From a phage: a stretch of 64,000 bases of DNA. The notes under the pieces were generated by a model that saw nothing but the letters and a program-made list of their open reading frames with translations, ran no database searches and was not told the origin of the DNA. Below, in pieces: positions 4,089-9,625 of this stretch; the first letter of the stretch is position 1, and every line of letters begins with the position of its first letter. The position numbers were made by a program, and so were the translations under genes. The stretch lies in the NCBI GenBank assembly GCA_017686895.1, contig GCA_017686895.1_4521.1, one strand, 5' to 3'.

Positions 4089-4112
4089 GAACTCTTCGGA
4101 GTTCCTTTTTTG
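4089..4112 (+). terminator. intrinsic terminator-like hairpin (UUCG loop) + T-run
   Basis: ggaactc-ttcg-gagttcc followed by tttttt. Confidence 0.55.
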
Positions 4113-5657: not shown

Positions 5658-7342
5658 AATCATTTAAATTAAATCGTGTTCGTTATCAAAACATCATGTC
5701 GGTAGGTGGGAATCCTATTGATATCCAATTAGATAAAGTCCAAAAGACATTAATCACTGGTAAAAATGGTGGTGGTAAATCTACGATGTTAGAAGCCATT
5801 ACTTTCGGACTTTTCGGTAAACCATTTCGTGATGTTAAGAAAGGACAAATCATTAATAGCACGAACAAGAAAGAGCTCTTAGTTGAGCTTTGGATGGAAT
5901 TCGATGATAAAAAATACTTCATTAAACGAGGCCAAAAGCCCAATATTTTCGAAATCTCCGTTGACGGTGTTCGTCTTGATGAATCTGCCAGCAGTCGTGA
6001 CTTCCAAGAAGAATTTGAACGTAGCATCGGAATGTCATACGCGTCTTTTAAACAGATCGTTGTGCTTGGGACGGCAGGGTATACCCCTTTCATGGCTCTT
6101 AGCACCCCTGCTCGCAGAAAGCTTGTTGAAGACTTATTAGAAGTTGGAACACTAGCTGAAATGGATAAAATCAATAAGTCTCAAGTTCGAGAACTTAATT
6201 CCCAGGGACAAGTTCTCGATGCCAAGAAAGATGGTATTATCCAACAAATTAAGATTTATAACGAGAATATCGAGCGTCAAAAGAAATTATCTGGCGATAA
6301 TGTAGCGCGTCTACAGAATATGTATGACGACCTAGCCAAAGAAGCTCGTTCATTAAAGGCTGAAATCGAAGAAGCTAATGAGCGTCTACTTAATATCGTT
6401 CTTGACGAAGACCCTACTGAGGCATTCAACAAGATCGGACAAGAAGCATTCTTGATTAAATCTAAAATTGACTCATATAACAAAGTTATTAAGATGTATC
6501 ATGATGGCGGTACATGTCCTACTTGTGCATCACAGTTGCACCAGGGTGATCCTATTGTCTCTAAGATTACCGATAAGCTTCATGAATGTAATCACTCATT
6601 CGAGCAACTTACCTGCCACAGAGATAATCTGAGTGTCCTAGTGGACGAATATAGAGCTAATGTTAAGACTAAGCAGGACCTTGCATCTGATATTCGTACC
6701 AAGAAACAAGCAATGATTGCCACTATTGATAAAGCTAAGAAAGTTAAAGCTGCAATAGAACAAGCCTCGGCGGAATTTATCGACCATGCCGATGAGATAG
6801 CTTTGCTTCAAAAAGAACTTGATAAAATCATTAAAACAAAATCGGATATCGTTCTTGAAAAATACCATCGTGGTATTATCACAGATATGTTAAAAGATTC
6901 TGGTATTAAAGGTGCTATCATTAAAAAATATGTGCCTCTGTTCAACAAGCAGATTAACCATTACCTTAAAATCATGGAAGCTGATTACGTGTTTTCTATT
7001 GACGAAGAATTCAATGAATCTATAAAATCACGTGGCCGTGAAGAGTTCAGTTATGCTTCATTTAGTCAAGGCGAAAAAGCGCGTATCGATATCGCATTGT
7101 TGTTTACATGGCGAGATATTGCTGAAAAGGTCTCTGGTGTTAGAATCAATACATTAATTATGGACGAAGTCATGGATTCCGCGACTGATTCTGAAGGTAT
7201 TAAAGCTATTTCAACAATTCTTAACTCTCTAACCGATGCAAACGTGTTTATAATTAGTCACAGAGACCATGACCCACAAGCTTATGGACAACATCTTCAA
7301 ATGAGCAAAGTTGGACGATTTACTGTAATGACTGTTTCATAA
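5654..7342 (+). CDS. 46: recombination endonuclease subunit gp46 (Rad50/SbcC-like ATPase)
   Basis: Walker A GKNGGGKST, coiled-coil middle, CPTC zinc hook; matches T4 gp46 as recalled. Confidence 0.92.
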   Translation: MKSFKLNRVRYQNIMSVGGNPIDIQLDKVQKTLITGKNGGGKSTMLEAITFGLFGKPFRDVKKGQIINSTNKKELLVELWMEFDDKKYFIKRGQKPNIFEISVDGVRLDESASSRDFQEEFERSIGMSYASFKQIVVLGTAGYTPFMALSTPARRKLVEDLLEVGTLAEMDKINKSQVRELNSQGQVLDAKKDGIIQQIKIYNENIERQKKLSGDNVARLQNMYDDLAKEARSLKAEIEEANERLLNIVLDEDPTEAFNKIGQEAFLIKSKIDSYNKVIKMYHDGGTCPTCASQLHQGDPIVSKITDKLHECNHSFEQLTCHRDNLSVLVDEYRANVKTKQDLASDIRTKKQAMIATIDKAKKVKAAIEQASAEFIDHADEIALLQKELDKIIKTKSDIVLEKYHRGIITDMLKDSGIKGAIIKKYVPLFNKQINHYLKIMEADYVFSIDEEFNESIKSRGREEFSYASFSQGEKARIDIALLFTWRDIAEKVSGVRINTLIMDEVMDSATDSEGIKAISTILNSLTDANVFIISHRDHDPQAYGQHLQMSKVGRFTVMTVS

Positions 7343-7384
7343 ACGCTTTAACATGATGTGGTTATAATGACCACATCAAATTAA

Positions 7385-7585
7385 ATGGAGAACAACATGG
7401 AGTATTCAACCGGACAACATCTTCTTGTTGTCCCTGAAATTAAAAAATATGTTTTGACCAATATGTTTTCAGGTGAAGAACATATTGTTACTGAACAAAT
7501 GCTCAAATCTGCTTTTAAAGATGAGTATAATAAAATAATGTCTAATCGCAATTCCGCATGGACAGTTACCGACTTCTACGAATAA
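7385..7585 (+). CDS. hypothetical protein
   Basis: 66-aa ORF. Confidence 0.35.
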   Translation: MENNMEYSTGQHLLVVPEIKKYVLTNMFSGEEHIVTEQMLKSAFKDEYNKIMSNRNSAWTVTDFYE

Positions 7586-7597
7586 GAGAGAAATAAT

Positions 7598-8014
7598 ATG
7601 TTTACTACTGCTAAAGGTTTTACCGCTGCTGATCTGAAAGTTACTTCTATCCGTACTGACGCTAACCCGCATAACCATAATCGTGTTCGTAAAGCATGGG
7701 TCCTGCATTGTGATGACGCAAGTGCTAAAAAGCTTCAATCTTTGCCACAAGAAACTCGTTTTATGATTTATGGTTTTATTGATAACGATGTATCTGATAT
7801 GTGGATTCATCTGATGCGTAAGCACTATAAAGATTCTATTGAAGCAGGTGGAAAAATCGTTCTTGATAAAGATGGTTCTGAGCGCCTGGAAGATTTCTAC
7901 TGTGTTGATGCCGACGAACAATTAATTGCAGCTGGCGAAATTGTTGCTTCTAAAATTCCAGAATATATTGAATCACTGCCTGAAGCTATTAAAAAGCAGA
8001 TGGTCGCTGCTTGA
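7598..8014 (+). CDS. hypothetical protein (possible RpbA by position only)
   Basis: 138-aa ORF upstream of gene 45 where T4 has rpbA; sequence identity not verified. Confidence 0.35.
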   Translation: MFTTAKGFTAADLKVTSIRTDANPHNHNRVRKAWVLHCDDASAKKLQSLPQETRFMIYGFIDNDVSDMWIHLMRKHYKDSIEAGGKIVLDKDGSERLEDFYCVDADEQLIAAGEIVASKIPEYIESLPEAIKKQMVAA

Positions 8015-8910
8015 TAATTATGAATTTAATATATCTTATAACCTTTTATAATCGTGAGATTAAAAATGAATACCCGTGTTATTATATAGGTTCTAAAGTT
8101 TCGTGTCATTTTAATGGAAAGGATATTATTGAAGATTCTACCGGTAAAATATATACCGGTAGTGTTAATTCCTCGTATTCTCCTTTATATAACAGATTAA
8201 TAGACCAAGGCGAATATTCTGTAAAAATTTTAGGCGAAACCACATTAGACCCTAGAAGAATAGAAAGACTATTCCAACTCAATGTTAAAGCCGTTTCAAA
8301 TGAAAAATATTTTAATAAGGCTTATGCTAACGAGAAGTCTAGAATATCAGCTAAAGGATATGCACCGTATAAAAATTTAAAAACAGGCAAAATAGTAAAA
8401 CTTTCTAAAAACGAAATAAACGAAGATTACGTCGGTGTTAGAAAAAATTGCAAATTGTCGGAGAATCATTTAAACGCAATTAGAGAATTTCAAAAAACAT
8501 ATTGGACCAAAGAACGAAGAGAGAAAGTTTCTATTCGTTCTAAAAAAATGTTTAACGATAGAGATTTTGCTTTAAAATTTAAAGATATAATGAATTCTCC
8601 TAATGTTAAAGATAAAATAAAAATATCTAAAACATTGTATTGGTCTAAACCTGAAAATAGAGCAAAGGCCTCTATCGCAGCTTCGAAAAGAAATGCAACC
8701 AAAGAATTTAAGGATAAATTCAGAAAATCTAAAGCTAGAGGTACATGGATATTTCATGAACAAAAATTAAAGGAATTGTGGATTGCTTTAGGAAAACCAA
8801 GTTATATTACATTTAGAAAACATGCAATTCAGCATGGTTTTAATGATGAATCATACCAAGGTGCTATCCGGTCTTGGACAAATTATTATGCTAATAGGAA
8901 ACCTAAATGA
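8011..8910 (+). CDS. homing-endonuclease-like protein (GIY-YIG-like N-terminus, NUMOD-like C-terminal repeats)
   Basis: N-term LIYLITFYNREIKNEYPCYYIGSK resembles GIY..YIG; Lys-rich C-terminal S-x-x-x-K/R repeats; markedly AT-rich relative to flanking genes. Confidence 0.5.
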   Translation: MIIMNLIYLITFYNREIKNEYPCYYIGSKVSCHFNGKDIIEDSTGKIYTGSVNSSYSPLYNRLIDQGEYSVKILGETTLDPRRIERLFQLNVKAVSNEKYFNKAYANEKSRISAKGYAPYKNLKTGKIVKLSKNEINEDYVGVRKNCKLSENHLNAIREFQKTYWTKERREKVSIRSKKMFNDRDFALKFKDIMNSPNVKDKIKISKTLYWSKPENRAKASIAASKRNATKEFKDKFRKSKARGTWIFHEQKLKELWIALGKPSYITFRKHAIQHGFNDESYQGAIRSWTNYYANRKPK

Positions 8911-9593
8911 AACTTAGCCGTGAAACCGTAAATATTCTGAAAAACTTCGCTTCTATTAACTCTGGCATTCTGCTGAGTCAAGGTAAATTTATTATGACTC
9001 GTGCAGTTAATGGCACCACTTATGCGGAAGCAAATATCTCTGATGAAATTGATTTTGACGTAGCACTTTATGATTTGAATAGCTTCTTAAGCATTTTGAG
9101 TCTAGTGTCTGACGATGCTGAAATTTCAATGCACACTGATGGTAATATTAAAATTGCAGACACACGTTCCACAGTTTATTGGCCTGCCGCTGACAAGAGC
9201 ACCATTGTTTTTCCTAATAAGCCAATTCAATTCCCAGTGGCTTCTGTGATTACTGAAATTAAAGCCGAAGACCTTCAACAATTGCTTCGAGTTTCACGTG
9301 GTCTTCAAATTGATACAATTGCTATTACAAATAAAGATGGTAAAATTGTTATCAATGGCTATAATAAAGTTGAAGATTCTGGACTAACTCGTCCTAAGTA
9401 TTCTTTGACTCTTACCGATTATGATGGTTCTAACAACTTTAACTTCGTAATCAATATGGCTAATATGAAAATCCAGCCAGGTAACTATAAAGTAATGTTG
9501 TGGGGAGCTGGTGATAAAGTTGCAGCCAAGTTTGAAAGCTCTCAAGTAAGTTATGTTATTGCAATGGAAGCCGATTCTACTCACGACTTCTAA
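8907..9593 (+). CDS. 45: sliding clamp gp45
   Basis: MKLSRETVNILKNFASINSGILL matches T4 gp45 as recalled; 228 aa. Confidence 0.93.
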   Translation: MKLSRETVNILKNFASINSGILLSQGKFIMTRAVNGTTYAEANISDEIDFDVALYDLNSFLSILSLVSDDAEISMHTDGNIKIADTRSTVYWPAADKSTIVFPNKPIQFPVASVITEIKAEDLQQLLRVSRGLQIDTIAITNKDGKIVINGYNKVEDSGLTRPKYSLTLTDYDGSNNFNFVINMANMKIQPGNYKVMLWGAGDKVAAKFESSQVSYVIAMEADSTHDF

Positions 9594-9625
9594 GTCAAAG
9601 CTTTACGTTTAATGTAGTACGATTA

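Follow-up and report, generated by a model that had tools for sequence, protein, structure and literature searches.

What is a conspicuously AT-rich gene doing between rpbA and the sliding-clamp gene 45 of a T-even phage? The question is raised by a 64,000-nucleotide stretch of phage DNA (contig GCA_017686895.1_4521.1 of NCBI GenBank assembly GCA_017686895.1; hereafter the window) from an RB69-like phage of the genus Mosigvirus. In T4 no such gene separates the two, as an earlier sequence-only reading of the locus had correctly noted; the spacer there is 55 nt, and in RB69 it is 42 nt and holds no insert. We read the additional gene as an intact, free-standing homing endonuclease gene (HEG) of the SegG family, for which a homing mechanism can be proposed, and put the probability of this reading at roughly 0.78. 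The kind of element is already known from the Seg-type HEGs of T4; this individual gene is uncharacterised.

The gene and its boundaries

8020..8910, + strand: free-standing homing endonuclease gene (HEG), 296 codons plus TGA stop

The gene order at the locus is 46, 45.2, rpbA, HEG, 45, 44, 62, regA, and the region from 7400 to 9600 is 98.4–98.7% identical to the corresponding DNA of phages JM17, FL18, FL31, G2285 and the AV1xx series. A mechanical call of open reading frames (ORFs) placed the gene at 8011..8910 on the + strand (299 aa), with a TTG start at 8011 that overlaps the rpbA stop codon. Since all orthologues begin at the ATG at 8020 (MNL(I/V)Y...), the protein is taken to be 296 aa long. 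The AT-richness remarked on earlier was borne out: the HEG has a GC content of 0.292, the lowest in the 64 kb, whereas the window averages 0.374 (sd 0.022). No other 891-bp stretch reaches 0.31 or less, and only 0.08% of stretches of that length are as low.

Family membership and the nuclease domain

8020..8334, + strand: SegG-type (divergent GIY-YIG) nuclease domain, residues 1–105; Y5, R12, Y22-I-G-S-K26, Y45, E82 and F98-N99 all kept

Homology, conserved residues and genomic behaviour place the protein in the SegG family. Residues 1–137 match PHROG 7504, ‘homing endonuclease’ (E 2.6e-16), and T4 SegG is 38.4% identical over 136 aa (tblastn, E 2e-8; E 1e-13 when the window alone is searched). 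A review of T4 mobile elements lists SegG as an active free-standing GIY-YIG endonuclease that targets gene 32, its own gene lying between 59 and 32 (PMC2988022). Together with patchy presence among relatives (see below), these matches uphold the proposal of a GIY-YIG-type homing endonuclease upstream of gene 45, and the GIY-YIG-like N-terminus on which that proposal leaned is indeed present, reading LIY...YYIGS.

Across an alignment of 54 SegG-family sequences, which was also the basis of an AlphaFold2 model, Y5, R12, P19, Y22-I-G-S-K26, Y45, G47, E82, F98-N99 and A103 are invariant or nearly so. The window protein keeps every one of them and departs from the family only at S28 (N in 91% of members) and A91 (V in 85%). 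The model has pLDDT above 90 across residues 1–100, and a search of predicted viral structures (BFVD) returned 39 matches at E ≤1e-3, mostly Seg, GIY-YIG and NUMOD3 endonucleases. Judged by motif order and secondary structure, rather than by residue-level superposition, Y5, Y22, E82 and N99 would correspond to Y6, Y17, E75 and N90 of I-TevI.

Several results weigh against this assignment. Scans of the window protein against Pfam and NCBIfam gave no match even at E ≤10. In a sequence search of the PDB the single protein gave chance matches only, and the family profile found no GIY-YIG entry. When that profile was aligned to I-TevI with hhalign, only the NUMOD3 region aligned and the catalytic domain did not. 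Foldseek ranked I-TevI (1mk0) first, at E 2.2, which is not significant on its own. Most pointedly, no SegG-family member, T4 SegG included, has a conserved Arg at residues 27–66 that could be the equivalent of the catalytic R27 of I-TevI; the only conserved basic residues in the family are R12 (K/R in 89%) and K26 (98%). Because the whole family shares this lack, the missing Arg is a trait of the clade and not decay of the window copy. The curated profile SegE_GIY-YIG (PF19835) matches three of the 54 relatives, weakly (E 3e-4).

On balance, the modelled fold and four of the five signature residues support GIY-YIG membership; the curated sequence profiles and the canonical Arg do not. The earlier doubt over the catalytic residues holds for the Arg, absent clade-wide, but not for Y5, Y22, E82 and N99, which are conserved.

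Distribution and recent spread

Comparison of the rpbA-45 junction across related phages, the check proposed by the sequence-only reading, found the gene in a minority of them. It occurs in 10 of about 151 Mosigvirus records and is absent from about 141–144 whose flanks are 95–99% identical, RB69 among them. Homologous inserts with 60–63% identity were found in 25 of about 500 Tequatrovirus and three of about 34 Gaprivervirus records, and a 49%-identical variant stands at the same junction in metagenomic T4-like contigs, which form a fourth lineage. In all four lineages the HEG lies always between rpbA and gene 45, the variants are 49–63% identical, and its GC content is 5–9 points below that of the flanks.

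Among Mosigvirus carriers, the cassette is more conserved than its surroundings. Between the window and JM17 the HEG is 99.9% identical (one indel) and gene 45 is the same over its first 200 nt, against 94.9% and 97.3% for the two flanks; for G2285 the figures are 99.55% for the HEG and 97.0% for the right flank. The same flanks are about 98% identical to those of RB69, which lacks the HEG, and so closer than those of the carriers JM17 and G2285 (95–97%). Single-nucleotide differences in the flanks mostly set the window apart from JM17, G2285 and RB69 alike, whatever their carrier status. Recent horizontal spread would be expected to leave just such a near-identical cassette in backgrounds that have diverged.

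Homologues of the protein at other loci are themselves HEGs, at 59/32, 49/nrdD and uvsX. A transposon-like element was considered and rejected, as a repeat search found neither target-site duplications nor terminal inverted repeats around the insert.

Two of these other loci deserve separate mention. Mosigvirus AV112 carries a SegG-family HEG, 32% identical to the window protein, between the endonuclease VII gene (gene 49) and nrdD (L007:1001-1822), and a SegG-family HEG occurs at this position in some Mosigviruses and Tequatroviruses. In the Enterobacter phage EnC07 (L008:538-2882) and the Salmonella phage pSe_SNUABM_01 (L010:28-2513), uvsX is in two halves separated by a SegG-like HEG, which shares 33–39% identity with the window protein over the latter's N-terminal half. 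The upstream half in EnC07 comprises a RecA domain and a Hint domain (intein N-terminal); the downstream half opens with the splicing motif of an intein C-terminus, after which comes the UvsX C-terminal domain. This arrangement resembles a uvsX ‘fractured’ by a split intein, the gap being occupied by a free-standing endonuclease gene.

The recoded start of gene 45

8907..9596, + strand: gene 45, sliding clamp; downstream neighbour and presumed target gene (8907..9593 in the ORF list)
8915..8963, + strand: HEG-linked recoded block at the gene 45 start; presumed target-site immunity allele and/or co-conversion tract

Immediately beyond the insert, gene 45 carries a sharp block of differences from RB69. 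Thirteen of the 18 nt at 8915–8932 (codons 4–9) differ, against a background of about one per 50 nt, and three more differences follow up to 8963. The 18-nt block reads TCT AAA GAT ACT ATC GCT in RB69 and AGC CGT GAA ACC GTA AAT in carriers, the change at codons 4–5 (TCT AAA to AGC CGT) being a switch of Ser codon and a replacement of Lys by Arg. Linkage to the HEG is complete in Mosigvirus: the recoded 40-nt allele is found in all ten carriers and in no other record, and 141 non-carriers have the RB69 allele. Carrier-linked 40-nt alleles exist elsewhere too, in 20 Tequatrovirus records, all of them carriers, and in three of three Gaprivervirus carriers. An AGY CGT signature is common to the Mosigvirus, Gaprivervirus and metagenomic (L014) carriers, in which gene 45 is otherwise lineage-specific.

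This pattern is most simply explained if the enzyme recognises or cleaves a site that takes in both the rpbA-45 spacer and the opening codons of gene 45, with the recoded block moving along with the HEG and shielding carriers. Two points count against it. Tequatrovirus carriers retain TCTAAAGA at gene 45 codons 4–6, so the exact target may vary between variants or sit in the replaced spacer. The linkage could also reflect co-transfer of the block from a foreign donor, without any immunity.

Operon integration and putative embedded expression signals

7598..8014, + strand: rpbA, upstream neighbour (context)
8011..8019, + strand: left junction; the rpbA stop is changed from TAA to TGA, 5 nt before the HEG ATG, and there is no Shine-Dalgarno for the HEG
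8568..8591, + strand: MotA-type middle-promoter motif within the HEG, TGCTTTA-N11-TATAAT, 339 nt before the gene 45 ATG
8784..8808, + strand: MotA-type middle-promoter motif within the HEG, TGCTTTA-N12-TATATT, 123 nt before the gene 45 ATG
8896..8901, + strand: gene 45 Shine-Dalgarno AGGAAA, made by HEG codons AAT AGG AAA

The insert is closely fitted between its neighbours. In the other lineages the rpbA stop codon overlaps or abuts the HEG start, and a Shine-Dalgarno for the HEG was found in none of the four. At the right-hand end, the HEG stop TGA (8908–8910) overlaps the gene 45 ATG (8907–8909), and the last HEG codons supply the gene 45 Shine-Dalgarno, with AATAGGAAA kept in all four lineages.

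The cassette also contains candidate promoters for gene 45. The pattern searched was TGCTTYA-N11-13-TANNNT, that is, a MotA box 11–13 bp upstream of a TAnnnT -10 element. The window contains 17 such sites where 1.76 would be expected, a roughly tenfold enrichment which indicates that Mosigvirus uses T4-like middle promoters. Two of the sites lie in the 3′ half of the HEG and are found again, equally far from gene 45, in the Gaprivervirus HEGs of TH15 and VR26. The metagenomic L014 has the proximal motif and lacks the distal one, and the Tequatrovirus HEG copy has near-variants of both (in Sholem, a variant of the distal one). At the proximal motif (8784) the window, TH15, VR26 and L014 have the same two hexamers, and the spacer between them varies at synonymous sites. 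In HEG-less T4 and DalCa, a MotA-type motif lies within the spacer that the insert replaces. We infer that the motifs in the HEG act as middle promoters for gene 45. For segG and gene 32, embedded middle promoters in the HEG coding region have been described and argued to favour retention of the HEG (PMC2988022).

Further MotA-type sites in the window include those at 4111, 6804, 15165, 20339, 30252, 39294 and 61046, several of them inside coding regions. A MotA-like site at the rpbA/HEG junction (8008–8034) was discounted, as it would start transcription 3′ of the HEG ATG and is not conserved. No T4 late promoter (TATAAATA) was found near the HEG or gene 45, only sites with one mismatch. A perfect hairpin at 8138–8162, with a 9-bp stem and a 7-nt loop (CTACCGGTA-AAATATA-TACCGGTAG, −14.9 kcal/mol), lies over the conserved GKIYTGS codons and holds two palindromic ACCGGT hexamers. 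As a terminator-like part of the mechanism it was dropped, since the Tequatrovirus, Gaprivervirus and metagenomic variants lack it.

The C-terminal half

8335..8439, + strand: conserved linker and beta-hairpin, residues 106–140 (GYAPYKNLKTGKIVKL...YVGV), common to NUMOD3-bearing family members
8500..8724, + strand: Lys/Arg-rich helical repeats, residues 161–235, two YW(T/S)K..R.K.SI..SK modules, defined by internal repeat and positional alignment
8746..8907, + strand: residues 243–296, most conserved segment, three predicted helices, with invariant columns

The sequence-only reading had described Lys-rich C-terminal repeats resembling NUMOD modules. The repeat itself is well founded: residues 161–189 (YWTK-ERREKVSIRSKK...) and 207–235 (YWSKPENRAKASIAASKR...) align with a score of 51, compared with 24.7 ± 4.8 for shuffled sequences, none of 2000 of which reached 51, and K and R make up 29.5% of residues 141–245. 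The NUMOD identity is only suggestive, since for the window protein Pfam gives no NUMOD3 match, an ad hoc HMM scores E 0.083 and a profile of close orthologues aligned to the I-TevI NUMOD3 helix by hhalign scores E 0.14, neither of them significant.

Within the family, Pfam NUMOD3 (PF07460) is found in 33 of the 54 members at the homologous position, C-terminal to the nuclease domain, and the family profile aligns with the NUMOD3 helix region of I-TevI (residues 168–202; hhalign E 5e-5) at window residues 170–211. The profile search suggested earlier thus returned NUMOD3 domains in relatives, but nothing from Pfam or NCBIfam in the window protein itself. The basic repeats are probably diverged NUMOD3-type DNA-binding modules. 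Residues 243–296, where pN (0.13–0.20) is the lowest of the three segments, are presumed to form a sequence-specific DNA-binding domain.

A proposed homing mechanism

Taken together, these features suggest how the cassette could spread. The window HEG is probably active, and its likely target is the rpbA-45 junction together with the start of gene 45. In a mixed infection with a HEG-less relative, the enzyme would use its basic helical repeats and its conserved C-terminal domain to bind DNA, and would cut at or near the junction or within the first gene 45 codons. Recombinational repair from the HEG-bearing genome would then copy in the cassette along with about 55 nt of recoded gene 45. Carriers would be protected by the recoded stretch and by the replaced intergenic spacer.

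Translation of the HEG would be weak and would depend on coupling to rpbA, because the cassette has neither a promoter of its own in front nor a Shine-Dalgarno. The cassette would compensate for the gene 45 control region that it displaces, with two MotA-type promoters in its 3′ half, a gene 45 ribosome-binding site formed by its last codons, and a stop codon that overlaps the gene 45 start.

Alternative explanations

The most serious alternative is that the gene is a decaying or catalytically dead HEG remnant that no longer homes, its DNA being kept for the embedded promoters, the ribosome-binding site and the stop/start overlap. Five of the ten Mosigvirus copies (JM17, FL18, G2285, AV111 and AV115) are frameshifted, each by a single-A indel in an A6 or A7 run (the runs lie at 8492–8497 and 8543–8549), and this, too, speaks against an intact homing gene: unless the frameshifts are sequencing errors, the HEG protein is dispensable in those phages. 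They represent either the degeneration phase of a homing cycle or homopolymer sequencing error, the latter being plausible given that all of them fall in such runs. A dead remnant would also suit the unidentifiable canonical Arg and the failure of Pfam to recognise either GIY-YIG or NUMOD in the protein. Moreover, the embedded promoter motifs and gene 45 Shine-Dalgarno would make deletion costly, the retention argument made for T4 segG (PMC2988022).

However, the window copy is intact, as are the other five GenBank Mosigvirus copies (FL31, AV116, AV109, AV114 and AV118), and the SegG-family invariant residues are all present. The dN/dS of the HEG is 0.13–0.23 between lineages, where dS is saturated, and 0.07 for TH15 against VR26; such low values imply that the protein itself has been maintained by selection. 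The near-identical cassette in diverged backgrounds likewise implies recent spread. We therefore consider a dead remnant unlikely, and the earlier suggestion that the gene may be degenerate is not borne out for the window copy, which keeps all family invariants and belongs to a lineage under purifying selection.

Less probable still is an ancestral T-even gene that was deleted in most lineages and was never a mobile insertion. Its presence at one junction in four genera or lineages, at 49–63% identity, could reflect vertical descent, and the insert is bordered by neither repeats nor any other scar of insertion. Against this, only 5–9% of the records in each genus carry the HEG, and in every lineage its GC content is lower than that of the flanks. 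Among carriers the flanks are less conserved than the cassette and fail to sort with carrier status; a sharply bounded stretch of recoding lies directly against the insert, and the homologues at other loci are HEGs.

A domesticated DNA-binding or exclusion factor, such as a regulator of rpbA or gene 45 or an anti-competitor nuclease that does not copy itself, is equally improbable: it would explain why the C-terminal domain is the most conserved, the tight integration into the rpbA-45 operon and the precedent of marker exclusion mediated by Seg enzymes (PMC2988022; PMC2993671), but the nuclease-domain invariants are kept, the patchy distribution and the near-identical cassette across backgrounds indicate that the gene itself spreads, and exclusion and homing are two outcomes of one cleavage, so that this is not truly distinct from an intact homing endonuclease.

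The intact SegG-family HEG thus remains our preferred explanation; it should be added, on the other side of the scale, that no paper describing a HEG at the rpbA-45 junction was found.

Possible movement between genera

A bolder extension of the intact-HEG reading, which we regard as possible but doubtful, is that one SegG-clade lineage has repeatedly crossed between T-even genera, arriving each time at the clamp gene, as a self-sufficient package with a non-canonical GIY-YIG active site. The package may consist of the nuclease, a recoded gene 45 start (AGY CGT) that serves as a portable ‘immunity’ allele, replacement MotA promoters and a ribosome-binding site, and in the active site R12 or K26 may replace the universal Arg. 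Evidence for movement of HEGs between T4-related genome types has been said to be lacking (Petrov et al. 2010; PMC2993671). If true, this extension would provide direct evidence of such inter-type movement, as well as a natural altered GIY-YIG catalytic constellation.

Comparison with known systems

T4 SegG (gp32.1) is the closest characterised parallel. Beyond the 38% identity of the N-terminal domains and their shared invariant residues, both genes are free-standing, co-oriented with their neighbours and immediately upstream of an essential replication gene, and both hold middle promoters for that gene within their coding regions (PMC2988022; putative here). A downstream-gene target is likewise presumed here. 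The two differ in locus (rpbA/45 here, 59/32 in T4) and length (296 aa here, 210 aa in T4), and their C-terminal halves are unrelated save for a GW(I) motif. Going by the title of Liu et al. 2003, SegG cuts far from its own insertion site, whereas the recoding linked to the window HEG lies 8–26 nt from the junction.

I-TevI, the GIY-YIG prototype, encoded in the T4 td intron, shares with the window HEG the equivalents of Y6, Y17, E75 and N90 proposed above and an architecture in which the nuclease domain is followed by an extended helical DNA-binding region. Unlike I-TevI, with whose catalytic domain it has no sequence-level match, the window HEG lacks an R27 equivalent, a zinc finger and a detectable I-TevI-type helix-turn-helix, has a beta-hairpin insertion of about 28 residues after YIGSK, and is free-standing rather than intron-encoded.

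The nearest relatives are the orthologues at the same junction: the VR26 ‘putative DNA endonuclease’, the ‘homing endonuclease’ of SHBML-50-1 and SholemSchwarzbard, and the metagenomic P0004. They share full-length homology at 49–63% identity, the order rpbA, HEG, 45, overlapping or abutting stop and start codons, the gene 45 Shine-Dalgarno, the embedded promoter motifs and HEG-linked alleles at the 5′ end of gene 45. The Mosigvirus variant differs from them as a distinct allele (dS saturated) with the 9-bp hairpin at 8138–8162, unique to it, and from the Tequatrovirus variant in that the latter keeps TCTAAAGA in gene 45.

Implications

Some orthologues are already labelled ‘homing endonuclease’ or ‘putative DNA endonuclease’ in GenBank and RefSeq records, while the Mosigvirus copies are labelled ‘hypothetical protein’. 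These ‘hypothetical proteins’ at the rpbA-45 junction, several of them split by frameshifts, can now be named. The gene is an uncharacterised HEG that probably targets the essential sliding-clamp gene, and it places a HEG in the lineage of RB69, its type phage, which was reported to have none (PMC2993671). As the flanking genes of carriers and non-carriers share about 98% identity, a homing cross is directly feasible. The four diverged variants at one locus form a natural series for the co-evolution of target specificity, immunity alleles and embedded promoters, and a clade without the canonical GIY-YIG Arg raises a question of catalysis.

Other observations in the window and its relatives

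The 64-kb window holds no second SegG-like gene, and an Rfam scan of the whole window found no match to RNA families. Minus-strand ORFs of 58–70 aa within the HEG region were judged unsupported.

Upstream of the locus, an inverted repeat of 19 nt (84% complementary, 1-nt loop) fills the gap between genes 46 and 45.2 (7347–7385) and could be a terminator or RNA-processing hairpin. The 3′ end of gene 46 (7132–7281) differs from JM17 at about 60 of 150 nt, yet is near-identical to RB69; this hyperdivergent patch is a mosaic and lies beside the site of an extra ORF in G2285. That ORF, which the window lacks, encodes 238 aa on the opposite strand between 46 and 45.2 (L002:704-1417, minus; about 7343–7384 of the window). 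Its only Pfam match is a weak one to a zinc ribbon, and it may represent a further mobile insertion, located one gene upstream. In Gaprivervirus VR20, an ORF annotated ‘hypothetical protein’ (L012:1449-1720) stands directly 3′ of gene 45, where VR26 has gene 44, possibly as a further insertion between 45 and 44.

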